Source: Parcubacteria group bacterium Athens0714_12
GTDB lineage: Bacteria > Patescibacteriota > Patescibacteriia > UBA2591 > VMGY01
Direction: 5' to 3'
Assembly (NCBI GenBank): GCA_007378955.1
Contig: VMGY01000001.1
Span: forward strand, 38,804-102,803
DNA length: 64,000 nucleotides
A program made the translations under genes and the position numbers. Shown one piece after another: positions 769 through 60,200 of this stretch (positions are counted from its first letter, which is position 1; each line of letters begins with the position of its first letter). The notes under the pieces are model-generated. The model was not told the origin of the DNA. It was given only the letters and a program-made list of their open reading frames with translations, and made no database searches.

Positions 769-769
769 A

Positions 770-2119: not shown

Positions 2120-2126
2120 AAAAACT

Positions 2127-2519: not shown

Positions 2520-2545
2520 ATTTTTCTATTTTTAATAATTTATAA

Positions 2546-8772: not shown

Positions 8773-8784
8773 TTTTTTCAAAAA

Positions 8785-8815
8785 GAAAATGTCAAGGTTG
8801 AACCTTGACATTTTC
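8785..8815. terminator. Perfect 15-bp-arm palindrome between convergent genes (bidirectional terminator-like)
   Basis: The sequence is GAAAATGTCAAGGTT|GAACCTTGACATTTTC, followed by a T-rich run. Confidence 0.5.
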
Positions 8816-8886
8816 TTGAATAAAATACAAAAATAGTAGGTTTGTAATTCGTAAAATATAATGAGTTTTGCAACCATCTCAATAAC

Positions 8887-12725: not shown

Positions 12726-13601
12726 ATGCCTGACATCAAAGAATTAGAAAAAAAAATAGAAGAACTGGGAAACGCATTCCAGGACCCTTCTATTTGCAGT
12801 AACCCGCAAAAAATCCAGCGGCTTTCCCAGGAATACAACAAAGCGAAAGAAGAATTAAAAAAACTCAAAGGAAGAGAAGATAAAAATGTGATCATAGAAA
12901 TCAGGGCCGGTGTCGGCGGCGACGAAGCGGAATTATTTGCCGCCGAACTTTTTAGAATGTATAACCGATACAGCCAAAATAAAAACTGGAAAATCCGGAT
13001 CATGAACAGCAATAAAACCCCTTTGGAAGGATTTAAGGAAATAACTTTTGAAATTTCCGGCTCTAAAGTCTACGACAATTTAAAATACGAATCCGGCGTT
13101 CATCGGGTGCAAAGAATTCCCGCCACGGAAAAAAATGGCAGAATCCACACTTCAACCGTCAGTGTGGCTGTATTGCCCGAAGCTTCTTCGGTGGATATTC
13201 AAATTGACCCGAAAGATTTAAGAGTTGACACTTTCTGCGCTTCCGGACACGGCGGCCAAAGCGTTAATACCACTTATTCAGCAGTCAGAATTACCCACTT
13301 GCCTACTAATCTAGTTGTCGGCTGCCAAGATGAAAGATCTCAAAGACAGAATAAGGATAAGGCGATGATTGTTTTAATGACAAAATTATTATCCTTGGAA
13401 GAAGAAAAAAAACAAAAAGAAGAAGCGCAAAAAAGAAAAGAACAAATCGGCACGGCCATGAGAGCGGAAAAAACAAGAACTTATAATTTTCCCCAGGACC
13501 GAATCACCGACCACCGAATACAACAAAGTTGGCACGGCATAGAACAAATTATGGAAGGAAATTTAGACCCGATTATAGAAAAATTAAAAAATACAAATTA
13601 A
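12726..13601 (+). CDS. prfA: Peptide chain release factor 1, N-terminally short (291 aa)
   Basis: Carries the GGQ motif ('SGHGGQSVNTT') and the RF1 tripeptide 'PAT' ('RIPATEKNG'). It lacks about 65 aa of N-terminal domain 1 relative to E. coli RF1. Confidence 0.85.
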   Translation: MPDIKELEKKIEELGNAFQDPSICSNPQKIQRLSQEYNKAKEELKKLKGREDKNVIIEIRAGVGGDEAELFAAELFRMYNRYSQNKNWKIRIMNSNKTPLEGFKEITFEISGSKVYDNLKYESGVHRVQRIPATEKNGRIHTSTVSVAVLPEASSVDIQIDPKDLRVDTFCASGHGGQSVNTTYSAVRITHLPTNLVVGCQDERSQRQNKDKAMIVLMTKLLSLEEEKKQKEEAQKRKEQIGTAMRAEKTRTYNFPQDRITDHRIQQSWHGIEQIMEGNLDPIIEKLKNTN

Positions 13602-24191: not shown

Positions 24192-24366
24192 GAGATGGTT
24201 ACAAAACTGCTTCGTCGCGAAATTTAGATAGTTTCAGCCAAGACGAGGAAAACAAGCAAAATGATTTGAGTCGTAATAGAATTACGGCGAAAATCATTTT
24301 GCGCAGTTTGACGAAGTATTGGCTGAAAATAGCAAATTACAGCAGAAGTAGTTTTGTAACCATCTC
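24192..24366. repeat. 175-bp element bounded by 17-bp inverted repeats (GAGATGGTTACAAAACT / AGTTTTGTAACCATCTC) with nested internal palindromes
   Basis: The terminal inverted repeats are at 24192-24208 and 24350-24366. Inside are the nested palindromes CAAAATGATTT...AAATCATTTTG and CGTAAT-aga-ATTACG. Related motifs occur at 8863-8880 and 48384-48401. Confidence 0.6.
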
Positions 24367-25167: not shown

Positions 25168-25947
25168 TTAAAAAAGAGTTTTGCGGTTATATTTTCTTTC
25201 TTCCTCGCCGGCTGCCGCGCGATAACGGCAAAAATCGCAATCAGGCGAAGCGCCGGGAATATTGTCGCTCATTAAACATTTGCGCGCTTCAAGTAAAACG
25301 TTTTCAATCCAAGAATCATCGCCTTTATAAGGGATTAATTCAATATCAAATTCTAATTTGGCGTCAAAAGCCTTACAGTCTGTTTTGCCATTGCAATAAA
25401 CAAAATAACCAACCGGCGAAACTTGGTAGCCATTTTGGCGAAAAAGCCATTGATAAATTTCCATCTGCCTCTTATAGCCAATCTGCCAATCCGCGTCCAA
25501 GTTTAACTGCCCTGTTTTTGAAGTCGCTTTGTAATCAACAATGATAAATTCTCCCTTTGGATTAACCCAAAGGTCGTCAATTCCGCCGGTAACAAAAAAA
25601 TTGCTCGGCTTGTGCAAAAAAGCGATTCCGCCGCGCAAAGCGTCTCGCCAAAAATCCAATTCTTTATGCGCCAAAGGCACCGCGTCAAGGCCATAAGTTT
25701 TCATTAAAGGATGGATTGTATTTTTTGCCCGATGAAGGTCAAATTCTTTTTTGAGCAACGCGTCAACCGCGGAATTAAGGGTGAAAGGATAACCCGGCGG
25801 CTGGCCGACGCCCAATCGCCTGTCAAGATAAAAACAGCGCGGACAATTCAAAAATAAATCAATTTTTGAACGGCTTAATCTGAAAGGATATTTTGAATTC
25901 GGGTCAAATAAATTCGATTTTCTTTTAGGGGTATAATATTTTGACAT
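25168..25947 (-). CDS. PD-(D/E)XK nuclease-superfamily protein (Cas4/RecB-nuclease-like) with cysteine clusters
   Basis: 'GIDDLW' and 'IVDYKATSK' fit the D...D/ExK core. Cysteines occur at the N-terminus 'CPRC' and the C-terminus 'CDFC', as in Fe-S Cas4/AddB nuclease domains. Confidence 0.6.
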   Translation of the reverse strand: MSKYYTPKRKSNLFDPNSKYPFRLSRSKIDLFLNCPRCFYLDRRLGVGQPPGYPFTLNSAVDALLKKEFDLHRAKNTIHPLMKTYGLDAVPLAHKELDFWRDALRGGIAFLHKPSNFFVTGGIDDLWVNPKGEFIIVDYKATSKTGQLNLDADWQIGYKRQMEIYQWLFRQNGYQVSPVGYFVYCNGKTDCKAFDAKLEFDIELIPYKGDDSWIENVLLEARKCLMSDNIPGASPDCDFCRYRAAAGEEERKYNRKTLF

Positions 25948-25968
25948 ATGATTATTGAACAGTTAAAA

Positions 25969-26003
25969 TTTGATTGATAATTGATAATTGATAATTGATA
26001 ATT
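25969..26003. repeat. Tandem heptamer (TTGATAA)x~4.5, followed by a GCGATAA-aaaa-TTATCGC hairpin
   Basis: The repeat is visible by direct reading and lies in the intergenic space between the nuclease and helicase genes. Confidence 0.6.
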
Positions 26004-26024
26004 TTCACGTTTTGCGATAAAAAA

Positions 26025-27665
26025 TTATCGCGCGTCAGATTCTTTCAAAAACAGCCGCGCGAGGCGCAGTTCGCGGTAGGAAAAACTTTCGCCGAGAATC
26101 TCGCGGACCACCGTCAATCTCGTATCCCCGGTCTCCTTAAAAACATTTTTTATTAATTCAAACCTTTTGCCCCATGGCCGCAAATATGACAAATCAAGGT
26201 TTTCATCCCGCTCAATTAATTTTTCCAGATGCCCTAAAATCGTATCCTCGGTCAAGCCGCGCTTTTCGGCAATTTCTTTAATGGAAAATTTTTGTAAAAC
26301 TAACATTTCCGTTTCCTCATATGTTGAAACGGATTTTAATTTTTCCGCCGGCGCGACAGATTTTAAAAATTCTTCCTGATTTTTTTCTTTTTCCAATTGG
26401 TTTAATTTTCTTAATCCAATACTAACCATCTCTGACATTCGCATTAATTCTTTATCTAATAATAACACTTCTTCATTGACTTGAAGAGCGATCTGATTCA
26501 AGCCCATCAATTTCAATCCCTCAAATGAGCGGACCCGCGAAAGCGCGACATAACCCATTCCTTCAACAAATGATTTGGAAAGGTCAATTTCCACCGCGTC
26601 CAAGCTCATCCCCTGGCTTTTATGCACGGTGATTGCCCAGGCCAAACGAAGCGGTATTTGGATAATTTCCGCTTTCGCCATCCCCTCTTCTTCTATCCGC
26701 CAGCTTTCCGGGCCGGCGATTATTTCTTTTCCTGTTTTACAAACCCGTACCACGGGAAAACCGTCTTCGTCAAAATCTTCAACTATACCAAGAGTGCCGT
26801 TCACGTAGCCTTTGTCAAAATTATTTTTAACAAACATCACCGCCGCTCCCCTTTTAAGTCGCAATTCCTCCGGCGCAAGACAGTTTTTTTTGAGAAAAGC
26901 CGCCAATTTTTTGTTGCCGCGGCTAGTCGCGAAATATGTTTTCATCTCTCCGCCAAGCGCTTCAAGATTTTTCTTATTGATAATATCAACATCAATATTA
27001 TGCGTGTAAAGTTTGGTCGCGGTAGAAAAATTTCGCGGACTTTTTTGGTATCTTTCTCTTAAAAATGACAATGTCCGCTCTCCCGCCTTATTCGCCCTGA
27101 TGTCGTTTAAGACTTTGATTAAAACGTCATCGCCCTGCCGATACTGCTCGCTTAAATAACAAATCTTTAAATTCATTTCCTGCCATATTTTTGATTTATT
27201 GGCAAAAGTTCTTTCCGTGCTGTTTTTTGAAACCGGTGGCAATTGAAAAAAATCTCCGCAAAGGACGACTTGCATACCGCCGAATGGCCGATTGTCTTTT
27301 TTGAAAGCCCGGCATACTTTATCAACCAAATCCAAATAAAAATAATGAAGCATGGAAACTTCATCGATGATTAAAACTTTGGTTTTTTCAAACCTTTTGG
27401 CGAGATAACGTTTTTTTGAAAGATCGCTGATTTCTCTTTCAGACATACTCTCTTTTATGCCGATTCCCGCCCAAGAATGAATCGTGATGCCATTCAGATG
27501 CGTGGCGGCAATTCCCGTGGAAGCGGTAACGCCGACGCCGACGCCCTTATTTTTTAAAAAATCAATATAAGCGTTAAGCGCGAATGTCTTCCCGCTTCCG
27601 GCCGGTCCAGTCAAAAAAACATTTTTTCCTAATTTTAATATTTCCAACGCCTCTTTTTGTGTCAT
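26025..27665 (-). CDS. Pif1/RecD-like SF1 DNA helicase with a C-terminal helicase-HTH domain
   Basis: Walker A 'GPAGSGKT', Walker B 'VLIIDEVSM', and 'VHKSQGMS' (motif VI-like). The C-terminal HTH reads 'KEIAEKRGLTEDTILGHLEKL'. Confidence 0.8.
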   Translation of the reverse strand: MTQKEALEILKLGKNVFLTGPAGSGKTFALNAYIDFLKNKGVGVGVTASTGIAATHLNGITIHSWAGIGIKESMSEREISDLSKKRYLAKRFEKTKVLIIDEVSMLHYFYLDLVDKVCRAFKKDNRPFGGMQVVLCGDFFQLPPVSKNSTERTFANKSKIWQEMNLKICYLSEQYRQGDDVLIKVLNDIRANKAGERTLSFLRERYQKSPRNFSTATKLYTHNIDVDIINKKNLEALGGEMKTYFATSRGNKKLAAFLKKNCLAPEELRLKRGAAVMFVKNNFDKGYVNGTLGIVEDFDEDGFPVVRVCKTGKEIIAGPESWRIEEEGMAKAEIIQIPLRLAWAITVHKSQGMSLDAVEIDLSKSFVEGMGYVALSRVRSFEGLKLMGLNQIALQVNEEVLLLDKELMRMSEMVSIGLRKLNQLEKEKNQEEFLKSVAPAEKLKSVSTYEETEMLVLQKFSIKEIAEKRGLTEDTILGHLEKLIERDENLDLSYLRPWGKRFELIKNVFKETGDTRLTVVREILGESFSYRELRLARLFLKESDAR

Positions 27666-28219: not shown

Positions 28220-28287
28220 GATCGTATATAATAAATTTAATACTCTCGTCAATCTTCGCCAAGTCTTTGATTGACGCAATCAATAAT

Positions 28288-29760
28288 TTTATGCCTACGC
28301 TTACTAAAAGACAAAAACAAATTTACGATTATATTAAAAGCTATGTAGAAAAAAATGGCCTCTCCCCTACTTTTAATGAAATAAAAAAACATTTCAAATT
28401 GTCGGCTGCTTCAACAGTCCATCAGCACATTGGGGCTTTGGTAGAAAAAGAAATGCTTATTAAAAATAATTACAACTCTCGCGGAATTGAATTAAATAAA
28501 AAAAATAGAAAAGATTTAATCAAAATTCCTCTTGCGGGAACTATTGCCGCCGGCCAACCAATTGAAACGTTCCAAACAAACGAAACAATCACGGTTCCTA
28601 AAAATCTTCTTTCAAAATCCGGCGAGCATTTTGCCCTTAAAGTTAAAGGCGACAGTATGATTGACGAAGGTATTTTTGACGACGACACTGTTATAATCAG
28701 AAAACAAGATACCATTGAAAACGGGGAAACTGCGGTCGCTCTGATAAACGGCAATGAGGTTACATTAAAAAAAATATACAAAGAAAAAAATCGCATCCGG
28801 CTTCAGCCGGCGAATCCAAATTTAAAACCTCTTTTTGTTAAAAATGTTATCATTCAGGGCAAAGTTATCAGCGCTTTTAGAAATATAGAAAAAATTGAAG
28901 AAGAAGATACTATTTTAAAATCTGACGAAAAATCAAAAGGACTTGCGGCAATAGAGCAAAAACATTATTTCAATAGAAATAATTTTGTTTTATACCATAG
29001 CGACTGCGTCTCAATGCTCAATAGTATGAAGGAAAACTCTGTGGATATGATTTTCGCTGATCCGCCTTATCTTCTTTCAAATGGCGGTTTTAGCGTTCAT
29101 GCCGGGCGGCGCGTAAGCGTTGATAAGGGCGAATGGGATAAAAGCAACGGACTTAAAAAAGATTTTGAATTTCATCTTGAATGGATACAAGCCGCGAGGC
29201 GCGTTCTAAAGCCGCACGGAACTATTTGGATTAGCGGCACTTACCATTCCATATATCAATGCGGTTTCGCGGTTCAGGTCGCCAAATTTCATATTTTAAA
29301 CGATATCGCGTGGTTCAAGCCAAACGCTTCTCCGAATTTAAGTTGCCGTTATTTCACCGCAAGCCACGAAACCTTGCTTTGGGCGCGTAAAGATAAAAAC
29401 GCAAAGCATGCTTTTGATTATGATTTGATGAAAAATGGCAACTGGCCGGAAGATCAGCTCAAAAAACCCGGGTTTCAGATGCGTTCGGTTTGGGCGATGG
29501 GAACGCCGAAACGGATTGAAAAAAAATTTGGGAAACATCCAACGCAAAAACCGGAGGATTTATTAAAAAGAATTATTCTCGCGAGTACAAATAAAGACGA
29601 TTTAGTTGTCGATCCATTTACCGGAAGTTCTACGACAGGAATCGCTTCCCATCTTTTAGGAAGGCGCTTTATCGGCATTGATACCGAAAAAAAATATTTA
29701 GATTTATCAATTAAACGATTTGAAGAATTAGAACGTAATTTAAAAAATCCATCAAATTAA
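28288..29760 (+). CDS. Fusion protein: a complete LexA repressor (wHTH + S24 autopeptidase) fused to a beta-class DPPY N6A/N4C DNA methyltransferase
   Basis: The N-terminus 'LTKRQKQIYDYI...GLSPTFNEI...ASTVHQHIGALVEKEML' is the LexA DNA-binding domain. It is followed by 'AAGQPI', the nucleophile 'VKGDSMIDEG' and the general base 'EVTLKKIY'. The C-terminal half carries motif IV 'IFADPPYLL' before motif I 'VVDPFTGSSTTG', which is the beta-class order. The two halves form one uninterrupted ORF. The track starts it at a TTG at 28267; I use the ATG at 28288. Confidence 0.75.
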   Translation, partial: FMPTLTKRQKQIYDYIKSYVEKNGLSPTFNEIKKHFKLSAASTVHQHIGALVEKEMLIKNNYNSRGIELNKKNRKDLIKIPLAGTIAAGQPIETFQTNETITVPKNLLSKSGEHFALKVKGDSMIDEGIFDDDTVIIRKQDTIENGETAVALINGNEVTLKKIYKEKNRIRLQPANPNLKPLFVKNVIIQGKVISAFRNIEKIEEEDTILKSDEKSKGLAAIEQKHYFNRNNFVLYHSDCVSMLNSMKENSVDMIFADPPYLLSNGGFSVHAGRRVSVDKGEWDKSNGLKKDFEFHLEWIQAARRVLKPHGTIWISGTYHSIYQCGFAVQVAKFHILNDIAWFKPNASPNLSCRYFTASHETLLWARKDKNAKHAFDYDLMKNGNWPEDQLKKPGFQMRSVWAMGTPKRIEKKFGKHPTQKPEDLLKRIILASTNKDDLVVDPFTGSSTTGIASHLLGRRFIGIDTEKKYLDLSIKRFEELERNLKNPSN

Positions 29761-29773
29761 ACATGAAAAATAT

Positions 29774-30418
29774 ATGAAAATTATAACTCGCGCAATGGCA
29801 ATAAATAATCTAAAAAAATATATCGGCCAAGATTTACAAAAGTTAGCTTTAAAGTACGGTATTACAACCTATAAAGCTGGAAAACAAAACAAGGGTTGGA
29901 AAGGTCTTATTCTAGAAATACTAGCCGGATTGGAAAACAATATTTCTAAAGCTCCTAATGGCTTATCATACGAATTAAAATCCGTTAGTTCGCATTATAT
30001 AAAAAACAAGCTTGTGCCAAAAGAAACTATGGCGATAACTATGATTAATCCGCAAGAGTTAAAAGCCCATTCTTTTTTTGAAAGCCATTGTTGGGCAAAA
30101 TTAAAATCTCTAATTTTTTGCGCTGTGATGTGGCATGGAAAAAACGCGAAAACATCGGAATTATTAAAAGTCATAAGCTTGGATTTTGCGGAAAATGATG
30201 ATTTAATAAAGGAAGTAAGGGATGATTATGACTTCATACGAAACAAGCTAATTATTAATGGCTTTGACGCATTAACTGGAAAAGATGGGAAATGGATACA
30301 AGCAAGAACAAAAGGTATTGGCGGCATAAATCCTCAAACAGGAAAAAAACGGCCGGTAACTCGCGCGTTTTACGCAAGGCCTATTTTGATAAAAAAATTT
30401 TTTGAAATGGCAAATTAA
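29774..30418 (+). CDS. MutH/Sau3AI-family (GATC-type) restriction endonuclease
   Basis: 'KGWKGLILEILAGL...GLSYELKSV...KETMAITMINPQEL' aligns with the MutH core 'KGWIGVLLEIWLG...LGVELKTIP...ETTFVCVAPL'. The C-terminal 'RAFYARP' matches MutH 'RGFYLKK'. Confidence 0.7.
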   Translation: MKIITRAMAINNLKKYIGQDLQKLALKYGITTYKAGKQNKGWKGLILEILAGLENNISKAPNGLSYELKSVSSHYIKNKLVPKETMAITMINPQELKAHSFFESHCWAKLKSLIFCAVMWHGKNAKTSELLKVISLDFAENDDLIKEVRDDYDFIRNKLIINGFDALTGKDGKWIQARTKGIGGINPQTGKKRPVTRAFYARPILIKKFFEMAN

Positions 30419-30471
30419 TAAACAATAAATATACTTGATATCAAGGTTGAACCTCTATAACTTTAATTTTA

Positions 30472-30510
30472 TTTGGCGCATATTTAAATATGCGCCAAAT
30501 ATATTTTTTA
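30472..30510. terminator. Perfect 28-bp palindrome plus a T-run, terminating the R-M cassette and the convergent minus-strand gene
   Basis: TTTGGCGCATATTTAAATATGCGCCAAA is followed by TATATTTTTT. Confidence 0.65.
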
Positions 30511-31000: not shown

Positions 31001-31074
31001 TGGCTGCGGGGCAGGGATTCGGACCCCGATACTCGCCTCCAGAGGGCGATGTCCTACCATTAGACGACCCCGCA
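31001..31074 (-). tRNA. tRNA-Gln (anticodon CUG), with CCA encoded
   Basis: The minus-strand read TGCGGGGTCGTCTAATGGTAGGACATCGCCCTCTGGAGGCGAGTATCGGGGTCCGAATCCCTGCCCCGCAGCCA folds as a cloverleaf by hand. It has a 7-bp Watson-Crick acceptor stem with U1:A72 and G73 (bacterial Gln identity), U8, a D-loop containing GG, an anticodon loop CU-CUG-GA, and the T-arm CGGGG/TCCGAAT/CCCTG. Position 55 is C rather than U, which is unusual. Confidence 0.75.
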
Positions 31075-31104: not shown

Positions 31105-32205
31105 CTACAACTTGGAACCTTCACTGATTTCAATTATTGCCAATTCCAAAGGCAGTTGTGGAATTTCAGCATACTCCAAATCACGCCGCGCCTGAATAAA
31201 CATATTAATCATTCGGACTAAATCTTTTAATTCTATTTCTTTGCTTAATAAAATAATTTCCTCATCTTTAACCTTATCCAAACCATAATATATCCCTTTT
31301 GCCTCTTGGTCAATCTTTAAAATCATTAATTTTCGCAAAAATTCAATCAAATTGGAACTGAAATCTTTTAAATCAACGCCCTCTTCCACTAATTTATTAA
31401 TCAAAAAAATCGTTTTTTCTTTCTTCTTGCTTATTAAATTCTTAACAAAATCAATAATTAAATTAATGTCCGAGCGCGGAAAAAATATTTCCGCTTCTTC
31501 ATAAGTGATTTTTTTGTCGCCCAAAGAAAAAATCTGCTGGAGTAAAGTTTCCGCGTCCCTGATACAACCTTCGCTCTGGCCGGCAATTTTTTCCAAAACT
31601 CTATGGTCAATTTCTATATTCTCTTTTTTGGCGATTACTTTTAGCTTTTCCGCTATTTCTTTCAAATTAACTTTTTTAAAATCAAATCTTTGGCAGCGGG
31701 AAATAATTGTTTCCGGCAATTTATGGATTTCCGTGGTGGCTAAAATAAAAATTACATGGCTTGGCGGCTCTTCCAAGGTTTTTAAAAGAGCGTTAAAAGC
31801 TTCCGGGGTGAGCTGATGCGCTTCATCTATCACGAAAACTTTGTATTTAGATTTGGTCGGCGCGACGCGCGCGTGATCGCGCAATTCCCTGATTTCATTA
31901 ATTCCGCGATTGGAAGCGGCGTCAATTTCTATTAAATCCAAATTTCTGTTTCCGGCAATTTCCAGACAAGAACTGCATTTATTACAAGGTTCGTATTCGC
32001 CTTGCTTCCTGTTTTCGCAATTTATCGCTTTTGCCATTAAACGGGCCGTGGTCGTCTTCCCTATTCCCCGAGGCCCGGAAAACAAATAAGCATGGGATAT
32101 TTTCCCTGCTTTTATTTCATTCTGAAGCGTTGTTTTAATCACTTCCTGCCCTTCTATTTCACTGAATTTTTGAGGGCGGTATTTACGGTATAAAGTCGTA
32201 GACAT
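31105..32205 (-). CDS. dnaX: DNA polymerase III gamma/tau subunit, gamma-length (clamp-loader core only)
   Basis: 'YRPQKFSEIEGQE...HAYLFSGPRGIGKTT', a CxxC zinc module, and 'VFVIDEAHQL'. 366 aa with no tau C-terminal domains. Confidence 0.9.
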   Translation of the reverse strand: MSTTLYRKYRPQKFSEIEGQEVIKTTLQNEIKAGKISHAYLFSGPRGIGKTTTARLMAKAINCENRKQGEYEPCNKCSSCLEIAGNRNLDLIEIDAASNRGINEIRELRDHARVAPTKSKYKVFVIDEAHQLTPEAFNALLKTLEEPPSHVIFILATTEIHKLPETIISRCQRFDFKKVNLKEIAEKLKVIAKKENIEIDHRVLEKIAGQSEGCIRDAETLLQQIFSLGDKKITYEEAEIFFPRSDINLIIDFVKNLISKKKEKTIFLINKLVEEGVDLKDFSSNLIEFLRKLMILKIDQEAKGIYYGLDKVKDEEIILLSKEIELKDLVRMINMFIQARRDLEYAEIPQLPLELAIIEISEGSKL

Positions 32206-32211
32206 AAAAGT

Positions 32212-32811
32212 TTAAGCTGATTTTTGTTTGTAAATTACGGTCTTATTTTTGCCGCTATGTTTACCTTGATACAGCGCTTTATCGGCCTCTTCTATTAATT
32301 GTTCTACTGATTGTTCGTCACTTAAAGAAGCGATGCCTAAAGTTATGGTAACATTTATTGAACTGCCTTTCACTTCAATGGTTTTATTGCTGATTATTTC
32401 CCTGATTCTTTCCACTTTTTTAAAAGCGTCAATTTGGTTTGATTTTTCCAAAATAATAAGAAATTCTTCGCCGCCATAACGGGCAATTTTATCCGTAATC
32501 CTGATTTTATTCTTTATTAAACTGCTGACTTTTTTCAAAACCAAATCTCCCGCTTGATGACCATAAATGTCATTTTTCTGTTTAAAATTATCAATATCCA
32601 AAAAAACAATGCTTAACTCGCCTTTCTTGCTCGTTCGGCGATCGCTGTTTCCTCTTATCATGGAAACTTCCTGAAAAATTCTTTTTAATTCCACTTCTAT
32701 ATAGCGGCGATTATAAACTTTTGTCAACGGATCTAAAATAAGCAGATTTTCCAATTGCTCGATTTTTGATTTTAATTCTTTATTTTCTTTTATTAAATTT
32801 TTTTTATCCAC
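32212..32811 (-). CDS. GGDEF-domain diguanylate cyclase with an N-terminal coiled coil
   Basis: The active site 'RYGGEEFLIIL' is intact. Its stop lies 6 nt upstream of the dnaX start. Confidence 0.85.
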   Translation of the reverse strand: MDKKNLIKENKELKSKIEQLENLLILDPLTKVYNRRYIEVELKRIFQEVSMIRGNSDRRTSKKGELSIVFLDIDNFKQKNDIYGHQAGDLVLKKVSSLIKNKIRITDKIARYGGEEFLIILEKSNQIDAFKKVERIREIISNKTIEVKGSSINVTITLGIASLSDEQSVEQLIEEADKALYQGKHSGKNKTVIYKQKSA

Positions 32812-32851
32812 GAAATTTTAATTATATTTTTTGCTTAAAAATGATTTTTTC

Positions 32852-35140
32852 TTAATTTAATTTTGAAATTTCTTTTTCCACGATATTTTTGTCCTTGCCG
32901 TATTTCATACGCGATGATTCTTTTATCTTTTGGCTAATTTTGCCGTCTCCCGGCTCCAAATCAAAGGTTCTCATATTAAAAGCTCTGACTTGCTGATTAT
33001 CTATTAAAAGTTTAACACAAGCGTTAAATTTTTCAATATTAATAAGGTCTTGTTCTGAAAAAATCGGCTGAAACTCTTTGACTAAAATTTCCGCGTCCTC
33101 TATTCCCACTTTAAAAACAATCATTGTGCCGATGGTTCCTAAAACAGCATCCCTGATCTTGGTATCCTGTCCTTTAATAAGTTGGCCTAAATACTGATGG
33201 GCGACAGTTAAATTTAATCTGTATTTGCGCGCCTCTGATAAAATCGTGGAAATATTCTCGGTAATAAAATTTTGGAATTCATCAATATATAAATAAAAAT
33301 CATTTCTTTGCTCCAAGGGCATATTTGCTCTGCCTAAGGCCGCCATTTGCAGCTTTGCCACGATAATCAAACCCAATAAGTTGCTGTTTATTTCGCCGAT
33401 TTTTCCTTTTGACAAATTAACTAATAAAATTTTTCTTTCATCCATTATCCGCCGGAAATTAAAACTGCTGGCCGGCTGGCCGATAATATTCCGCATTACT
33501 TCATTTTCCGCGAATCTGCCGACTTTGCTGATAATATAGCCGTACATTTCTGATTTGTGAAAATCGCTTGTTTTCGCTATTTCTTTTTCCCAATAAAGGC
33601 GCACTTGGGGATTTTGAACTTTTTGCACTTTTACTTTTTGAAATTCCGGGTCTGTGAACAGGCGAGGAATTTCCACTAAAGTGCCGGAATTTTCTTTGTC
33701 TGCCATTAAAGTCAAAAGATTATTGCGCATATGATGCTCAAAAACCGGGCCTAAAATTTCCGGCGGAAACATTTTTTGCCAAATGGCAATCATTTCCTGA
33801 ACCGCGAAATCAACCTCTTGCGGCGTTTTTGCTTCCAGCATATTCAAACCGAGCGGCCGGCTGGTGTCCGAAGGGTCAAAAACAATCACCTCATTTACTC
33901 TTTCTTTGGGAATTCTTTGCAAAATATCTTCCACTAAATCGCCATGCGGGTCAATAACGCATACTCCGTGTCCATTTTTTATGTCCTGAATAGCCATATT
34001 GGCGATTAAAACGCTTTTTCCCGTTCCTGTCATGCCGGCAATATAAATATGCCTTCTGCGGTCATCGTCTTTAATTTTAATTATATTTTCCGCGCCGCGA
34101 TAACTATTTTTTCCTAAAATTATGCCTTCTTGCGCCATATTTGCCGGCGGCGCCGACTTTTTATAAAGCATCCATCGAATATTCGGAGTTTCTAAAGAAG
34201 GCAGAGGCGGATGGAATAAGCTGGCCAATTCTTCGGTATTAAGAATGATTTTCTTGCTTTCATCAAATTTTCTAAAAATAAAATTACTAATCAAACGATT
34301 TTGATTCCTTGGGATAATAGCATTAAAGCTATTTCCCGCTTCATAAATATTAAACTGGGTAAAAGTATTAATAATGCTATCCAAATCTCTTGACGCCATT
34401 TCTTTGCTTTTAGTGGAAACCAAAACTCTGACATTAACCCCTAATCCCATTTTAGACGCCTTTTCTTCCAAATTATTAATAATATTCTCTTCTATTGGCG
34501 AAAGGTGATGAGCTTGCTCTATTTCTTTTTCTTTCAACTTGCTTGGAAAAAAAATTTCTTTCAAATTTTTAAGCAATATCCCTTGCGAAACATTTGCCAT
34601 TGCTTCATTTAAATTTTCTCCTTGCTGCATTTGCGAAGCGATTTTTAATCCTCTTTTATGCCAATTTTGCGAAGTCGGCTTAATTAAAATCTGGATTACC
34701 GCGCTTTCCCCTCTTTTAAACTTGCTTAAAATGCTGGTTAATGAGTTTAAAGGGTTTGACTCCATTTTAAGGTATGTTTTGATGGGGAAAATGCTTTCTC
34801 TTTTTAAAATTAAATCAGCGCCTAAACAAGCGCCTTGGGGTAAAAAAATATTATAATCCCCCACTTCTTCCAATTCTGCCGATGGAAATTGAGCATGCAA
34901 TTGACGTTCAATAAACCTTTTCAGCGCCTCGGGATAAATTAAATAAAAAGTGATTAAATTATCTTTTTCCGCCGCGATCTCCAAGGCTAAATAATCTTTT
35001 TTACTCCAAAAATATTCCTTTTTCTTAATTCCTCCTAAATTGCCGTAAAAAGTCTCCATCAAAGCAATCAAATTTTTTGGCTCTTTTTTGGAAAATTCTT
35101 CGCTTAATTCTTTTGGCAAAAGCAAACGGCTGATAATCAT
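32852..35140 (-). CDS. Large P-loop ATPase of the conjugation/secretion AAA_10 group (VirB4/TraC/TraG-HerA-like)
   Basis: Has a mid-protein Walker A 'HIYIAGMTGTGKS' followed by 'VCVIDPHGD', a Walker B 'FYLYIDEFQNF', and 'EARKYRLNLTVAHQ' (RKxN...Q). It has no TM segment. The call rests on motifs only. Confidence 0.5.
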   Translation of the reverse strand: MIISRLLLPKELSEEFSKKEPKNLIALMETFYGNLGGIKKKEYFWSKKDYLALEIAAEKDNLITFYLIYPEALKRFIERQLHAQFPSAELEEVGDYNIFLPQGACLGADLILKRESIFPIKTYLKMESNPLNSLTSILSKFKRGESAVIQILIKPTSQNWHKRGLKIASQMQQGENLNEAMANVSQGILLKNLKEIFFPSKLKEKEIEQAHHLSPIEENIINNLEEKASKMGLGVNVRVLVSTKSKEMASRDLDSIINTFTQFNIYEAGNSFNAIIPRNQNRLISNFIFRKFDESKKIILNTEELASLFHPPLPSLETPNIRWMLYKKSAPPANMAQEGIILGKNSYRGAENIIKIKDDDRRRHIYIAGMTGTGKSVLIANMAIQDIKNGHGVCVIDPHGDLVEDILQRIPKERVNEVIVFDPSDTSRPLGLNMLEAKTPQEVDFAVQEMIAIWQKMFPPEILGPVFEHHMRNNLLTLMADKENSGTLVEIPRLFTDPEFQKVKVQKVQNPQVRLYWEKEIAKTSDFHKSEMYGYIISKVGRFAENEVMRNIIGQPASSFNFRRIMDERKILLVNLSKGKIGEINSNLLGLIIVAKLQMAALGRANMPLEQRNDFYLYIDEFQNFITENISTILSEARKYRLNLTVAHQYLGQLIKGQDTKIRDAVLGTIGTMIVFKVGIEDAEILVKEFQPIFSEQDLINIEKFNACVKLLIDNQQVRAFNMRTFDLEPGDGKISQKIKESSRMKYGKDKNIVEKEISKLN

Positions 35141-35308
35141 TTATTTGTTTATTATAGACCTGATGCCTAATAACTTTTTCTGCTGCAACTTGAAATTTTG
35201 GCTGCAAATTATTCAGAACTCCTCGCCTTATACTCCGTATAAAGCTTTGTCGTCCTTCATAATTTTCGCTCAAAATTTCCGCGTTTCGCAACGAAAAATT
35301 ATTACGCA
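35141..35308. repeat. 130-bp intergenic element flanked by an imperfect 18-bp inverted repeat (AGACCTGATGCCTAATAA / TTATTACGCATCAGGTCT)
   Basis: The inverted repeats were found by direct reading. The overlapping track ORF 35025..35309 is probably spurious. Confidence 0.45.
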
Positions 35309-35806
35309 TCAGGTCTTTATTTCTAAAATTTTTTTAGTTTTAATTTCAGCTTCTTTTTCTATGTAAAATTTATTTATGCCGGGAATAATTCTAAGCCACT
35401 CTCTTATTAATTCAAATATTCGCCTGAATACTGTTTTTGCCTTTTTTAATAAAGACTCTATTTTTAAGGCCGTTTCTTCGCCTTTGGCCTTGAAACTGTT
35501 TTTAACTGGTTCATCTAAAGAAAAATAAATGCTTTCCAAGTCTTCTTCCAAAATATTCTCTATTTTGCTTAAAGCCGGGCTTTTACTCGGAGTTTTTGAA
35601 GTTTTTTCAATAGAAATCGCGGCTGTGGTTTTTAACGGCTTTTTTTTAACTCCAATTTCTTTTTCTTTCTTGTAATCCCTTGTTTCATTTTCCCGACTAA
35701 GTTCTTCTTCTATTTCAACTGATTCTTTTTCCAAGCTTTTCAAATTTATATCTTCTAATTTTTTTTCTAAATTATTTTTATAAACCATAAATAGATTATA
35801 CCACAA
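35309..35806 (-). CDS. Hypothetical charged/coiled-coil protein
   Basis: 165 aa, K/E-rich, with no TM segment and no recognisable motif. Confidence 0.3.
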   Translation of the reverse strand: MWYNLFMVYKNNLEKKLEDINLKSLEKESVEIEEELSRENETRDYKKEKEIGVKKKPLKTTAAISIEKTSKTPSKSPALSKIENILEEDLESIYFSLDEPVKNSFKAKGEETALKIESLLKKAKTVFRRIFELIREWLRIIPGINKFYIEKEAEIKTKKILEIKT

Positions 35807-54600: not shown

Positions 54601-54731
54601 CTTATGCTCCTTTTTTAGCCATACTTAAATAAATTCTAAATCCTAATATCTAAATCCTAAAAAAATTCTAAATTCAAATGTTCAAAATTCAAAACCCTTT
54701 TGATTATTTGGATTTTGTATTTTGAATTTGT

Positions 54732-55139
54732 TTAGGATTTCAAATTTTGTATTTCGAATTTTAACAATCTCTTCTCCAATCTCTCCATCTTTAAAGCGTC
54801 TTTTTCTTTCTGATGGTCATATCCCAATAAATGCAAAAGGCCATGAATCAATAAAATTTCTATTTCTTTTTTTATGGAATGTTTTTTCTCTTTCGCCTGC
54901 CTTTTTGCCTGTGGATAACAAATAATAATTTCCTTAACATCTTCAAAACTTAATACATCGGTGATACGATTTTTTTTTCTGTAAATTTTATTTAAATTTT
55001 TTATCGCCTTGTCCCCGACAAAAGCAATGGAAATTTCCTTGCTTTCTTTTTCCGCCATTTCTTTTAAACATTCTTTAATTATCTTTTTTATCCATCCTTT
55101 GCTAATCGACGCTTTAACTAAATTATTAATTTCAATCAT
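54732..55139 (-). CDS. ybeY: Endoribonuclease YbeY
   Basis: 'HGLLHLLGYDH' zinc motif. Confidence 0.85.
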   Translation of the reverse strand: MIEINNLVKASISKGWIKKIIKECLKEMAEKESKEISIAFVGDKAIKNLNKIYRKKNRITDVLSFEDVKEIIICYPQAKRQAKEKKHSIKKEIEILLIHGLLHLLGYDHQKEKDALKMERLEKRLLKFEIQNLKS

Positions 55140-57228: not shown

Positions 57229-60200
57229 TTAAGGCGAACTTACGGAAATACTGCTAATTGTCGGAGAAACATCGTCGCTTTCCGAACTAAGAACTATTTC
57301 AATTTGCAGCCAACGATCTGTTTCGATGATAATATTTCTTTCTGTATAATAATCAGACCATTCTGCCGCCGCTAAACTATCTTCATTGACCGCGCTTTTA
57401 ATTCTGGTTCTGATATTGGTAAGAGGGGGTTCTTCTGTTTCCAAAACAATCTGACTTTGATGCATTCCTATTCTTTGGCTGTCAAAATTAGTCCGCCAAA
57501 TTCCCGCTCGCATTGTGATACTGCGCAAAGCATACCCAGTCATATCCGAGTATGTATAAGGATTATTACCTACTGGATATGTTCCTAAAACTACACCATC
57601 AAGTCCTCTTAATTTTGTCGCGTTCCCGCTGTTAAGATTAATCACCCAGATATTGCCGTCGCTGTCCGACGCCACGCCTATAGGATGTTCGCCTACCCCG
57701 TAACGCCCTAATAGACTTCCTTGATTATTAAGATTTACAACTGTGTTATCACCGGACATAGCCATCCAAATATTATTATTTTTATCTACTGCTATGCCTC
57801 GGCCATTTCCTTCAATACTAAAAAAAGTTCTCAAGCCAGTCACTGGATCCAATTTAGTCGCTCCAGATGGGTCATAATTAGCAATCCAAACATTATTATC
57901 CCTGTCTATCGCAATGCCATAAGGAGAAATAATATCCGTATAATTAGTTAATCTGCTGTTACTAATCTCAATTCTATCTATTTTATTAGCTCCTCTATTG
58001 GAAATCCATACATTGCCCAGGCCATCCACAACCGCGCCATAAGGCCCGCCGCCAACATTAATAGTTTCTAAAATCTGACAATTTGTATCATCGCCAGAAA
58101 GCTTCATAATTGTGCCGTTTATACCATCTTCATAATTCGCTATCCAAACATAACCCTGGTTATCAATCGCCGCGCCCTTTGGTCCATTGCCAACCGAACA
58201 AGTTTTTAATAAACCGCCGTCAGCGCCTCTTAATTTAGTTACATTGGCTGAATCGCGATTGGCAATCCAAACATCCCCGCTAATATCAACCGCGGTGCGC
58301 GAAGGATTAACGCCGACTAGATAAGCACCGACCAATGAACCGTCCTCTATATTTAATTTAACCACTCTATTATCAGAAGAATTGGCAAGCCAAATATATT
58401 CTGTTTCAATTTCCTGTAAATCCAATTGAATTTGATTGCCGTTTAAATTTACATTAACTTGTTCGCCTTCGCTAAATTCTAAAGATGAATCCCATGTCTT
58501 AGCTAAAATATCGCAATTAGCGCTGCAATATCCCGGTTGTCCATTTAAAAATCCATCGTCGCAAGTTTCATTTGGCTCTCTTATTCCATTGCCGCAAGAA
58601 CCCAAGGCCAAGCATTCCGTCCATTCGCCAAAAACGCAATTATTGCCGCAAATTCTTTTTCTTGCGCCCTGATAACCTCCTGGCGCAAGACAAGAAGCTG
58701 TTTCATCATTTCCATCGCATTCTTCTCCGCATTGGGTTACTTTATTGCCGCAAGAATTTTTCCATTCGCCCAAAACGCAATAATATCCGCTTCCATTTGG
58801 ATGGCAGGAAGAAAAAGAATAGCAATTATTTTCAAATTCACATTGGCTAAGCTCTTGGCAGGCATTGGTTGGGTATTCAGAAACATAATTCAAGGAATAA
58901 GTTTTTCCTTGATCAAAAGTAGTGTAAATATAAATATAACTCTCTTCTGGAAATTCTTCGGGCAAATTTCCATCAAACTCCTTTCTTTCCTCATTCCAGC
59001 AGGTTTTGGCATCATAGCCGGGACAAAGGCCAAATTCATTAACAGGGTCAATCGGCAAAACCGCTCCCAAATCTTTACCTAAAGTATCCTGCCAAGACTT
59101 CCAGGCAGAAACAGAAATTCCTTTAAGGTAACTGCCTGATTCTAATTTCGGGTAATAACCATAACTATTTTTATATTTTTCCAATAAATCGCTTATTTCG
59201 TTTATGTCGCCCCATCTTTTGACATTCCTTTGCAAGGCGATTTTTTCCTGTAAACTTTCTATGTTAGTGTTAAACCTTAAATTATTCAGCATTTGATTAA
59301 AAATATCTATCGTCTCTTTAGCGGCATCTTGGTTGTAAGAAATTAAATAAATATTAGTATAAGTTATTCCGCCTGCTGAGTTGGCCGCATTAACATAGAC
59401 CGTTCTTCCATCTTTCCATGCTTCATATCCATCAATAATCAAAGAAGCGGGATTTCCCGGATTTGGCGCGTTTTCTCGGTACCATGCCAAAGAATCTAAT
59501 TTTTTGGAGTTTTTCATTACTCTGATGCCAATCGCGTCTTTGCCGTTGTTTTCTTTAAATAAAAATTCTTTTACCACTTCGCCTCTGCCGAGAATAACCA
59601 CTTGGCTGTCAAAATTAGGCAGTAAGGTTTTTCCGTCTCGGCAATAAGTGGTGGAAAAATTCGTTTCATTGTCAATATAAGGAAATTCTATCAAAGAAGG
59701 CCATGGATTTTCACAAATAAACACGTCAATGCTTATTCCTCCCATACCCATACTTGATTCATTTTCAAAGCCTTGCGTTTCCGCTTGAACTTTTAAAAAA
59801 GCCCGGCCGTTTTTACTTTGCGCCGTAATAAATGGATTATTTATAGAATTAGAGGAAATATTTATTATTTCTTGAGGGTCTATTTCAGCCCAAATATAAG
59901 AAACGGAAAGTAAATTACCACTGCTGTCTAAAGCTTGAGCAATATAACGGTGCTGATTTCCAGGCATCGCGTTTTGGTCATTAGGGCAATCATTCCTACC
60001 CGCGCATTCAAATAAATCTTTTTCTTTTACTTCTCCCGGCGGTTCCACCATAATTTCCACTTTATCAATCTGGCAAATAGTGTTTCCCGTGGTAAAATTC
60101 CAATTATAGTCGCTGTTCATACTTATGCCTTGCCGGCTTTTCACCCCGTCTAATCCTCCTCTAATGGAAACCTGATGCGCGGAATTTTCCGCCAATAAAT

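Follow-up and report, generated by a model that had tools for sequence, protein, structure and literature searches.

An orphan coupling-protein-like ATPase in a probable conserved chromosomal block with dnaX and tRNA-Gln in Patescibacteria, and a diguanylate cyclase gene placed within it

Orphan genes for VirD4-type coupling proteins ('t4cp') are abundant in Patescibacteria, where most of them lie far from virB4, and the authors who described them noted their possible exaptation (Quinonero-Coronel et al. 2025, PMC12102498). In Southlakia, the T4SS cluster contains no recognizable coupling and relaxase proteins (PMC10633639). The ATPase considered here very likely belongs to the orphan set of PMC12102498. 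The word dnaX does not occur in that paper (0 occurrences), and the partner gene, the tRNA-Gln linkage, the DUF8128 domain and the helix loss reported below come from the present analysis.

Layout and transcription of the locus

The preliminary description of the window (the whole 64-kb stretch of DNA analysed, from Parcubacteria group bacterium Athens0714_12) placed a conjugation-type ATPase, a GGDEF protein, dnaX and tRNA-Gln in this order on the minus strand, with 40 nt between the first two genes and the GGDEF stop 6 nt ahead of dnaX. Both the order and the gaps were correct according to the ORFs, ARAGORN and direct reading of the sequence (Table 1). One aspect of this arrangement is not a matter of chance: the order ATPase...dnaX-tRNA-Gln recurs in dozens of related genomes, while the GGDEF position recurs only in a handful of close relatives.

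Table 1. Features of the ATPase-dnaX locus (positions in the window)
Feature	Position	Strand	Remarks	Basis
TGGTATAAT, extended -10-like box	35795..35803	minus	ends 6 nt before partner-gene ATG	sequence reading
Small partner gene, 159 aa	35309..35788	minus	upstream of ATPase	
Near-perfect hairpin, 161 nt	35156..35316	minus	fills partner-ATPase spacer	
TATAAT	35151..35156	minus	ends 10 nt before ATPase ATG	sequence reading
ATPase, 762 aa	35140..32852	minus	ATG start	ORF listing, direct sequence reading
ATPase N-terminal alpha/beta domain, aa 1-~335	34136..35140	minus	DUF8128	precomputed annotation
ATPase motor domain, aa ~340-730	32951..34123	minus	P-loop NTPase, FtsK/HerA/VirB4/VirD4 superfamily	
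ATPase-GGDEF spacer, 40 nt	32851..32812	minus		direct sequence reading
TATAAT	32821..32826	minus	ends 9 nt before GGDEF GTG, within the 40-nt spacer	
GGDEF protein, 199 aa	32811..32212	minus	GTG start, TAA stop	ORF listing, sequence reading
GGDEF-dnaX gap, 6 nt		minus	ACTTTT	direct sequence reading
dnaX, 366 aa	32205..31105	minus		ORF listing, sequence reading
dnaX-tRNA spacer, 30 nt		minus		
tRNA-Gln(CTG)	31074..31001	minus		ARAGORN; also Rfam

The four genes had also been described as apparently co-transcribed, and this holds in part. They are co-directional and tightly packed, the minus strand shows no terminator-like site between any two of them, and the 40-nt spacer shows no stable structure (MFE -0.5 kcal/mol). 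Because the gap after GGDEF is so short and neither a -10-like box nor a Shine-Dalgarno sequence of its own was found at the dnaX start, GGDEF and dnaX, possibly with tRNA-Gln, are likely to share one transcript. A single transcript running from the ATPase to the tRNA is not assured, however, since an exact TATAAT (frequency in the window 0.00076 per position) precedes both the ATPase and the GGDEF gene. The box in front of the partner gene is a candidate promoter for the entire minus-strand unit; with exact TATAAT sequences before the partner, ATPase and GGDEF genes, these may belong to separate transcription units.

The TATAAT ahead of the ATPase is created where the hairpin element meets the ATAA flanking it. 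The hairpin, which is also carried by an independent assembly (L001), has an RNA folding energy (MFE) of -72.7 kcal/mol, shuffled sequences giving -32.5 +/- 3.5 (z = -11.5). This exceptional stability, the position inside a putative polycistronic mRNA and the lack of any further copy in the window, in 96 loci or in the JGI metagenomes would suit a regulatory RNA (an RNase III site or an attenuator) that evolved in place, but such an origin is somewhat doubtful, as there is no U-tract past the stem and other features point elsewhere. The element has clean boundaries, its arms form terminal inverted repeats, ATAA direct repeats flank it at 35317-35320 and 35152-35155, and taking out the hairpin with one ATAA restores the reading ...AAA TAA ATG, in which stop abuts start. 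In the closest relative (L083) the hairpin is missing and the spacer measures 24 nt. The boundaries, the repeats, the restored junction and the absence in L083 favour an insertion, which would have split formerly abutting partner and ATPase genes in this genome.

The ATPase and its small partner

All the motifs quoted in the preliminary description are present in the ATPase (Walker A GMTGTGKS, IDPHGD, Walker B YLYIDEF and, for the RKxN...Q type, ARKYRL...Q), and all four lie in columns invariant over 118 homologues. The proposed origin from the conjugation/T4SS world is upheld by HMMs and by homology to plasmid T4CPs, but the AAA_10/VirB4-like label is not: among the profiles suggested for checking, AAA_10 and CagE_TrbE_VirB gave no match even at E<=1, whereas T4SS-DNA_transf (40.5 bits, cut-off 20.1) and DUF87 (30.6, cut-off 23.2) scored above their cut-offs, as did TrwB_AAD_bind (33.7, cut-off 20.5) and TraG-D_C (22.1, cut-off 22). 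The NCBIfam matches are TraD and the VirD4-like CD1115 family; sequence matches in the PDB are limited to TrwB and DotL; the top structural matches include TrwB, DotL and Cagbeta, and the full-length TM-score to VirB4 (TrwK) is only ~0.3.

A tblastn search with the ATPase reached 625 plasmids (Bacillus, Streptomyces, Clostridium, haloarchaea, Sulfolobus), of which 31 records cover at least 80% of the query; among the best matches listed, identity is 23-28% over 85-92% of the query. On plasmids of B. subtilis and Embleya, the gene for the homologue adjoins a replication-relaxation (relaxase) gene, and the conjugation cluster holding both encodes a VirB4-like ATPase as a separate protein. By hhalign, our protein aligns with the plasmid T4CP over its full length (650 columns, probability 100, E 2.5e-39), in contrast to a probability of 1.8 with the VirB4-like protein of the same plasmid, which aligns only at Walker A. 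Given this and the T4CP HMMs, a VirB4/AAA_10 identity was rejected; judged by its sequence and profiles, the ATPase is a homologue of the VirD4/TraD/TrwB-type coupling proteins (T4CPs).

It has in common with T4CPs, above all the two-domain ones on conjugative plasmids of Bacillus, Clostridium, the Streptomyces group and archaea, the P-loop motor with a helical insertion (all-alpha, about aa 440-567 here) and a DUF8128-type N-terminal domain; the DUF8128 domain (AlphaFold pLDDT 91.6) also aligns with the Bacillus plasmid T4CP, and PF26449 is annotated on the ATPase product and on all listed homologues. It probably descends from the VirD4/TraD-type coupling protein of monoderm and archaeal conjugation systems, which has both domains in common with it. 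Unlike the plasmid proteins, it is chromosomal, stands in a core-gene context with neither relaxase nor VirB4 nearby, and is far more conserved. There are 7,688 homologues, the best 120 of which are 52-72% identical and all possess DUF8128, and a relative is encoded in 587/600 candidate stretches of species-representative genomes. On the match to a housekeeping family that the preliminary description named as a refutation, the evidence is divided: no named housekeeping family matched, but the protein belongs to a widely conserved chromosomal family that stands among core genes. Most members retain a membrane anchor, one N-terminal transmembrane helix. In contrast to T4CPs, the copy studied here is without any transmembrane segment, its 19-residue hydropathy peaking at 1.49, whereas the N-terminal helix reaches 2.3-3.2 in typical members, and the helix has been lost in this clade.

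The partner protein gave no Pfam or NCBIfam match; its N-terminal part is variable and its C-terminal helical domain of ~95 aa is conserved. In ~70 of 80 related loci a homologue immediately precedes the ATPase in the same orientation, and its stop lies a median of 212 nt before the first aligned ATPase residue; the N-terminal extension of the ATPase is about as long, so that the two genes abut in the relatives. The family comprises 1,640 representative clusters at E<=1e-3, the best 150 of which are all stand-alone proteins (116-198 aa), and two sequences (P0003 and P0004) carry the C-terminal domain as a fusion to the N-terminus of the ATPase. No plasmid homologue was found, and the protein is specific to Patescibacteria. 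The adjacency and the two rare fusions suggest that the proteins may interact physically. Coupling ATPases are likewise encoded with a small helical partner in the Cagbeta-CagZ, TraD-TraM and DotL-DotM/IcmSW pairs (the comparison being taken from the title of a structural match, PDB 8dol, 'regulation of Cagbeta ATPase by CagZ'), although CagZ, TraM and DotM/IcmSW have no detectable sequence relationship to our protein. By analogy with such adaptors, the partner would probably recruit or regulate the ATPase.

Conserved synteny and the cyclase gene

Synteny was evaluated in the 80 best-matching genomes (Falkow-, Kerfeld-, Uhr-, Kuenen- and Komeilibacteria, which we take to be ABY1-type lineages). 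Downstream of the ATPase, on the same strand, dnaX is found in 48 of the 80 loci, or 48/66 where at least 3 kb of flank is available; a same-strand tRNA-Gln(CTG) follows dnaX in 35/44 related loci, and the dnaX start lies a median of 89 nt past the preceding ORF. Between the ATPase and dnaX there is a variable slot ('cluster1' in 35 loci, 'cluster0' in 57), usually holding a membrane SAM-methyltransferase-like gene, described as protein-lysine-methyltransferase-like, and a gene of 190-250 aa for a beta-rich protein with no assigned function. The identity of dnaX is clear (TIGR02397, 429.8 bits, cut-off 250), and the form present here is a short one with domains I-III only, most relatives having 500-570 aa. 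The coupling of a cyclase and a translocase to the clamp-loader gene, which had been called unexpected, thus resolves into two things. The linkage of a T4CP homologue with dnaX and tRNA-Gln recurs in dozens of related genomes and so appears to be an old, ancestral synteny in the examined part of Patescibacteria, which could persist through slow rearrangement instead of shared function. The GGDEF gene is a separate matter, being found at none of the 80 related loci.

The GGDEF protein (Pfam, 1.9e-42; TIGR00254, 163.5 bits) consists of a short N-terminal coiled-coil stalk and the GGDEF domain. It shares with PleD/WspR-type cyclases the GGEEF active site, the metal- and GTP-binding residues, the coiled-coil stalk before the domain and the RxxD I-site five residues upstream, and differs from them in having no fused receiver or sensor domain. 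The residues of both sites are invariant in the alignment with relatives, and the protein is predicted to be a catalytically intact, product-inhibited stand-alone diguanylate cyclase. Parcubacteria group bacterium Athens1014_10 has a protein of 100% identity, values of at least 59% are confined to about five relatives, and the next best match has 47% or less. In L083, a 72%-identical relative, the ATPase gene abuts dnaX with no GGDEF. Further variants are ATPase-DJ-1 (L084), ATPase-GGDEF-cluster0 (L085, L087), GGDEF-dnaX (L092) and HK-x-RR-GGDEF-cluster0 (L088-90), and the cyclase gene appears to be a clade-restricted insertion in the variable slot. In the last variant it directly follows a response regulator, the orthologue of a stand-alone receiver that is encoded with a pilus-linked histidine kinase at 770-2519 of our window, 30 kb from the cyclase. 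On the basis of this one related lineage (three contigs), the cyclase would more plausibly receive its input from that kinase and receiver.

Possible roles of the block

The tight spacing (40 nt and 6 nt) without terminator-like sites could also mean, as the preliminary description implies, that the ATPase, the cyclase and dnaX form a functional module in which local c-di-GMP controls the translocase and/or the expression of the clamp loader, and second-messenger signalling would then be tied to DNA transfer or replication. The cyclase does lie just upstream of cluster0 or dnaX in 5/5 GGDEF-clade contexts and just downstream of the ATPase in 3/5, but a single insertion inherited by descent explains these five contexts most simply. 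Its absence from L083 and from the 80 related loci with the ATPase-dnaX block, together with the unrelated genes housed by the same slot (DJ-1/PfpI, methyltransferase-like, cluster0), makes a module of this kind highly improbable. The search for PilZ or other c-di-GMP receptors, proposed in the preliminary description, detected no PilZ, EAL, HD-GYP or c-di-GMP riboswitch in the 64-kb window, and the MshEN domain of PilB does not possess the RLGxx...G...Q binding motif.

As to the ATPase itself, its full-length homology to bona fide plasmid T4CPs and the anchor kept in most of the family would be expected of a working coupling protein bringing DNA or protein substrates to a T4SS encoded elsewhere in the genome, with the dnaX adjacency being incidental; T4CP genes are often far from virB4 (PMC12102498), and one surface protein encoded in the window (1,566 aa) carries a VirB2-like T4SS_pilin domain, which suggests that this organism has a T4SS. 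We nevertheless regard this role as unlikely. Neither T4SS core genes (VirB4, VirB6) nor a relaxase were found within the 64 kb, Patescibacteria have few relaxases (109 in 103 genomes), and in ML1 the T4CP homologue is not essential while the T4SS is (PMC12102498). The lost helix also argues against it, and both the 52-58% identity across distant lineages and the fixed core-gene synteny are atypical for T4CPs of mobile elements. Exaptation for chromosome biology, as a DNA pump in segregation, in replication-linked DNA handling or in uptake, would explain the operon-like linkage with the clamp-loader gene, and the co-directional, closely spaced block ending in dnaX-tRNA-Gln, the strong sequence conservation and the affiliation of the motor with the FtsK/HerA/TrwB DNA translocases agree with it, the literature having left the possibility open (PMC12102498). 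It is decidedly improbable all the same, as the ML1 homologue is reported to be non-essential (PMC12102498), the slot genes give no replication signal, and a missing FtsK is no obvious driver, given that at least one Saccharibacterium (TM7x) has an annotated ftsK.

We consider it probable that the locus represents a conserved chromosomal block of Patescibacteria, composed of the partner gene, the orphan T4CP-like ATPase, the variable slot, dnaX and tRNA-Gln(CTG), into which the cyclase gene has been inserted. The ATPase, which one N-terminal transmembrane helix anchors in most relatives, likely acts as a ring-forming NTP-driven translocase or as a substrate receptor. In this genome and a few close relatives the slot holds a small product-inhibited diguanylate cyclase. 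Its insertion into an operon-like block would by itself account for its probable co-transcription and translational coupling with dnaX and tRNA-Gln. For the Patescibacteria this would mean that a coupling protein of conjugation systems has become a fixed and strongly conserved chromosomal gene with no relaxase or VirB4 adjacent to it.

Setting and identity of the ATPase

The gene order on the minus strand between 31.0 and 35.8 kb is as the preliminary description had it, and ORF coordinates, tRNA and domain searches agree on it (see the table). The window also holds dnaE, rpsB, tsf, prfA/B, ftsZ/A/W, nrdD, thrS, hisS, gatB and miaA/B together with a type IV pilus cluster; it is an ordinary stretch of core chromosome from a reduced genome, and the contig is also present in independent assemblies.

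Features of the window discussed in the text, in order of window position
Feature	Position	Strand	Remarks
Type IV pilus cluster	1-3643		also L093, 8272-9999; pilB (MshEN + T2SSE) and pilC
Histidine kinase gene	770-2119		between pilB and pilC
Stand-alone receiver gene	2127-2519		between pilB and pilC
pilC	2546-3643
Second release-factor gene	12726-13601		291 aa
Intergenic hairpin	24256-24302		z = -7.9
Pif1 helicase and PD-(D/E)XK/Cas4-like nuclease genes	25168-27665
Methyltransferase fusion gene, then MutH-like endonuclease gene	28267-30418		497 aa; 214 aa
Palindrome	30470-30501		T-run on plus strand only
tRNA-Gln(CTG)	31074..31001	minus	30 nt after dnaX
dnaX	32205..31105	minus	366 aa; 6 nt after GGDEF gene
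GGDEF gene	32811..32212	minus	199 aa; GTG start; 40-nt spacer after ATPase
ATPase gene	35140..32852	minus	762 aa
ATAA direct repeats	35317-35320 and 35152-35155		4 bp; flank hairpin element
Hairpin element	35316..35156	minus	161 nt, near-perfect; fills most of 168-nt partner-ATPase spacer
Partner gene	35788..35309	minus	159 aa; no family match
Intergenic hairpin	54631-54761		z about -4; AT-rich
T4SS_pilin protein gene	57229-61929	minus	1,566 aa

Some other genes of the window deserve mention in their own right. The Pif1 helicase and Cas4-like nuclease genes adjoin a fusion gene whose product joins a LexA DNA-binding domain to an S24 peptidase and an N6/N4 methyltransferase. The MutH-like endonuclease gene follows, and together with the fusion it forms a pair resembling a type II restriction-modification system, in which the LexA-type N-terminus is unusual. 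In the second release factor the match to the PCRF domain begins only at profile position 98, with an ABC_tran_CTD-like coiled coil in place of the N-terminal part, and the protein may be a truncated or unusual RF2.

The ATPase had been labelled AAA_10/VirB4-like, and this label did not survive the HMM searches, in which neither AAA_10 nor CagE_TrbE_VirB matches the protein even at E <= 1, whereas T4SS-DNA_transf (score 40.5, cut-off 20.1), TrwB_AAD_bind (33.7, cut-off 20.5), TraG-D_C (22.1, cut-off 22) and DUF87 do. The NCBIfam TraD and VirD4-like models also match, far under their equivalog cut-offs. Of the more than 7,600 homologues found, the top 120 align full-length at 52-72% identity; all of these have an N-terminal DUF8128 domain followed by the P-loop motor, and all come from Patescibacteria wherever a source is named.

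The AlphaFold model built from a 118-sequence alignment (pLDDT 91.6, pTM 0.85), used instead of one from nine sequences in which the pLDDT of the motor domain was 60, comprises an alpha/beta N-domain (residues 1 to ~335) and a RecA-like motor (~340-730). The Walker A/B nucleotide-binding domain of the latter carries an inserted all-alpha domain, an arrangement expected of coupling proteins of the VirD4/TraD/TrwB type (T4CPs). In a structure search the motor falls into the VirB4/TrwB/HerA/DotL/Cagbeta group, with values of 30.2 for the VirB4 C-terminal domain (4ag5), 28.0 for TrwB, 25.1 for HerA, 24.2 for DotL and 22.3 for Cagbeta, and the Foldseek TM-score against TrwB is 0.62-0.67. Since VirB4 and T4CPs are both among the top matches, structure by itself cannot tell one from the other; VirB4, however, shares only its C-terminal ATPase fold with our protein, and the PDB sequence matches are to TrwB and DotL only.

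Sequence comparison does tell the two apart. With tblastn the ATPase matched 625 plasmids, from Bacillus, Streptomyces-group bacteria, Clostridium, haloarchaea and Sulfolobus; the top matches listed are 23-28% identical across 85-92% of the protein, N-domain included, and 31 plasmid records span at least 80% of the query. On a Natrinema plasmid the N-domain and the motor are encoded by two separate adjacent genes. On a B. subtilis plasmid and an Embleya plasmid the homologue adjoins a replication-relaxation gene, and these conjugation clusters also encode a separate VirB4-like ATPase. Profile alignment (hhalign) to the B. subtilis plasmid T4CP gives a probability of 100 and an E-value of 2.5e-39 over 650 columns, and to the VirB4-like ATPase of the same plasmid a probability of 1.8 with a match at Walker A alone. 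The missing HMM match and the restriction of the profile alignment to Walker A rule out a VirB4/AAA_10 identity, and the match to the Bacillus T4CP and not to its VirB4 makes the protein a T4CP-like homologue of the coupling proteins of monoderm and archaeal conjugation systems.

Two features set it apart from a classical T4CP. The usual relaxase and mating-pair neighbours were not found in the 64-kb window, where the ORFs include no relaxase, VirB4 or VirB6. The N-terminal transmembrane anchor is absent as well: typical members of the family have a single N-terminal transmembrane helix, which the window protein and the three relatives closest to it (P0002-P0004) lack, their maximal 19-residue hydropathy being 1.49 against 2.3-3.2. 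Elsewhere in the window lies a protein in which an N-terminal VirB2-like T4SS_pilin domain is followed by Big_5 and beta-propeller/NHL-type repeats; it may be related to the pilin-bearing T4SS described for Patescibacteria. The T4CP identity fits published work, according to which VirD4-type t4cp genes number in the thousands in Patescibacteria (5,713 homologues in 2,918 genomes, implying roughly two per genome), lie almost always away from virB4 (only 148 of the 5,713 are near it) and may have been exapted (PMC12102498), and the essential T4SS cluster of Southlakia has no recognisable coupling protein or relaxase (PMC10633639).

A syntenic block with dnaX and tRNA-Gln

The neighbourhood of the ATPase was compared across the 80 best-matching loci of species-representative genomes, whose ORFs were searched with the window proteins. 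A homologue of the partner gene lies directly upstream, on the same strand and abutting the ATPase, in about 70 of the 80 loci, and dnaX follows downstream on the same strand, 0.1-4 kb away, in 48 (48 of the 66 loci whose flank extends to 3 kb or more; of the other 18, ten have the usual slot genes). The dnaX start is a median of 89 nt past the preceding ORF, and tRNA-Gln(CTG) comes after the gene, in the same orientation, in 35 of 44 loci. Such recurrence indicates that the ATPase-dnaX-tRNA-Gln linkage is an old, operon-like syntenic block. We found no description of this block in the literature searched, where DUF8128 is also unmentioned and where dnaX has zero occurrences in PMC12102498.

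The slot between the ATPase and dnaX is variable. Its common occupants, which we call cluster1 (35 of the 80 loci) and cluster0 (57), are absent from the window and occur across L005-L082, for example at 8326-8880 and 8956-9576 of L024. Cluster1 proteins are membrane-anchored and SAM-methyltransferase-like, resembling an archaeal protein-lysine methyltransferase with a score under the cut-off; cluster0, immediately upstream of dnaX in most loci, is a beta-rich protein of 190-250 aa with the motif VPANYASKSKLVEGD...WAAVENIIK. Neither cluster0 nor the partner protein belongs to a Pfam or NCBIfam family, and tblastn found no match to the partner on plasmids. The partner family (1,640 representative clusters) consists of stand-alone proteins of 116-198 aa; the ATPase homologues P0003 and P0004 carry the conserved C-terminal domain of the partner as an N-terminal fusion, which suggests that the two proteins may interact physically.

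The dnaX gene of the window was identified by TIGR02397 (429.8, cut-off 250) and NF004046 (466, cut-off 400). Its product comprises domains I-III only and aligns to no more than positions 3-358 of a 567-position model; the tau-specific C-terminal domains IV-V were not found in it. Short gamma-only genes (364-366 aa) are also present in L083 (5509-6603), the nearest relative, and in L004 (7152-8243); the dnaX of most related Patescibacteria encodes 500-570 aa. The tau C-terminal region, which normally contacts polymerase and helicase, appears to be missing from all three.

The claim that the ATPase, GGDEF, dnaX and tRNA-Gln genes are co-transcribed can be upheld only in part. In its favour, the four are co-directional with short gaps, and the sole minus-strand terminator-like match falls within the ATPase ORF, with none between genes; the short spacers form no stable fold. 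The strong palindrome downstream of the tRNA gene was rejected as a minus-strand terminator on account of its T-run lying on the plus strand only. Against it, exact TATAAT boxes, which occur in the window at a frequency of 0.00076 per position, end 10 nt before the ATPase start and 9 nt before the GGDEF start, so that these two genes may have their own transcription starts; another ends 6 nt before the start of the partner gene, as TGGTATAAT. Only six of the 48 window genes have Shine-Dalgarno sequences, and in 11 of the 48 a TAnAAT box lies 6-16 nt ahead of the start codon, which suggests that leaderless or very short-leader mRNAs may be frequent in this organism. No TATAAT box precedes dnaX, which starts in L083 just 7 nt past the ATPase stop. 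We infer that dnaX would rely on the transcription and translation of whichever gene is upstream, and tRNA-Gln probably does so too.

The probably inserted diguanylate cyclase and the hairpin element

The GGDEF protein (Pfam E = 1.9e-42, 145 bits; TIGR00254, 163.5 bits) has an identical counterpart in Parcubacteria group bacterium Athens1014_10. Its active-site and metal/GTP residues (RYGGEEF, LDIDNF, N80, D89 and K184 in GK..GKN) are invariant in its alignment with relatives, as are R104 and D107 of an RxxD I-site five residues before GGEEF (R104-I-T-D107 K I A R Y GGEEF). Ahead of the domain is a coiled-coil stalk of ~25 residues; the protein lacks a sensor domain. With its catalytic and I-site residues intact, it is expected to work as a diguanylate cyclase subject to product inhibition, an enzyme type already reported in ultra-small groundwater bacteria (PMC9938205).

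Close relatives of this protein are restricted to four sequences of 59-74% identity; the next best matches are at most 47% identical and some of them come from Thermodesulfovibrio and other phyla. The gene was found in none of the 80 best-matching loci. In L083, whose ATPase is 72% identical, partner gene, ATPase and dnaX follow one another and GGDEF is absent, and in L084 (68%) a DJ-1/PfpI gene follows the ATPase. GGDEF orthologues are present in L085 and L087 (ATPase-GGDEF-cluster0), in L092 (GGDEF-dnaX) and in L088-90, where the order is histidine kinase, a 253-aa gene, response regulator, GGDEF and cluster0. Most simply, the ancestor of a small clade would have acquired the cyclase once, in the variable slot that precedes cluster0/dnaX, and local rearrangements would have followed. 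The coupling of a c-di-GMP synthase to the clamp-loader gene, considered unexpected in the preliminary description, resolves into an ancient T4CP-dnaX-tRNA-Gln block (48 of 80 loci) and a recent cyclase insertion (none of 80). Recent transfer could not be argued from composition: the GC content of the gene is 31.8% against 36-37% in its neighbours, which lies within the gene-to-gene spread of the window (histidine kinase 30%, partner gene 29%) and makes the test uninformative.

The kinase and receiver of L088-90 are orthologues of the two window genes that sit between pilB and pilC. With the receiver orthologue directly before the GGDEF orthologue, the order in these loci resembles a split version of PleD/WspR, and the input of the cyclase is likely to be this pilus-linked two-component system. 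On the output side, the search for c-di-GMP receptors yielded none within the 64-kb window: its ORFs include no PilZ, EAL or HD-GYP domain, it contains no c-di-GMP riboswitch (Rfam found tRNA only), and PilB, encoded just upstream of the window, has an MshEN domain from which the RLGxx..G..Q binding motif is missing.

L083 lacks the hairpin element that separates partner gene and ATPase in the window. The folding energy of the element is -72.7 kcal/mol compared with -32.5 +/- 3.5 for shuffled sequences (z = -11.5), its terminal inverted repeats read AGACCTGATGC[G/C]TAATAA, and once it is excised, stop and start codon abut again as TAA-ATG, resembling the close spacing seen in relatives. The TATAAT box ahead of the ATPase arises at its junction. 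From these features it looks like a MITE-like insertion. It shares terminal repeats and target-site duplication with MITEs, whereas the multiple copies typical of these were not found in the sequences searched: a second copy was detected neither in the window nor in 96 loci nor in JGI metagenome contigs (two metagenome scans), and eight single-repeat matches, without a second arm, are attributable to chance. Two further stable intergenic hairpins of the window are unrelated to it in sequence, and a common repeat family was rejected.

Possible role and significance

We favour the view that this orphan T4CP works with an adaptor as a translocase or substrate receptor, perhaps for the dispersed T4SS of Patescibacteria, over its membership in a dedicated c-di-GMP/replication module. 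A role directed at the chromosome is unlikely but conceivable. In its strongest form, which we regard as improbable, the partner, the orphan T4CP, (where present) cluster0, dnaX and tRNA-Gln would be a single functional unit in which Patescibacteria have domesticated a conjugation motor for their own DNA, with tasks such as replication-linked translocation, segregation or salvage import; in this small clade the motor would also have come under c-di-GMP control and left the membrane. An anti-phage defence system is disfavoured: PADLOC gives just generic mad8/HerA-type matches for the ATPase and no match for the GGDEF or partner protein, and the universal synteny also speaks against it.

Patescibacteria account for much of bacterial diversity, and among the surface machines they rely on are type IV pili and a T4SS that has no relaxase. 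What their abundant orphan coupling-protein homologues do is posed as an open question by the 2025 survey itself (PMC12102498). What is new here is one family of these orphans with a fixed small partner protein, a two-domain architecture like that of plasmid T4CPs and an operon-like place before dnaX and tRNA-Gln. The c-di-GMP side is less important, its lesson being that a minimal cyclase can enter a core operon of a reduced genome. For the few tractable Patescibacteria, the block offers a defined gene set and testable hypotheses.
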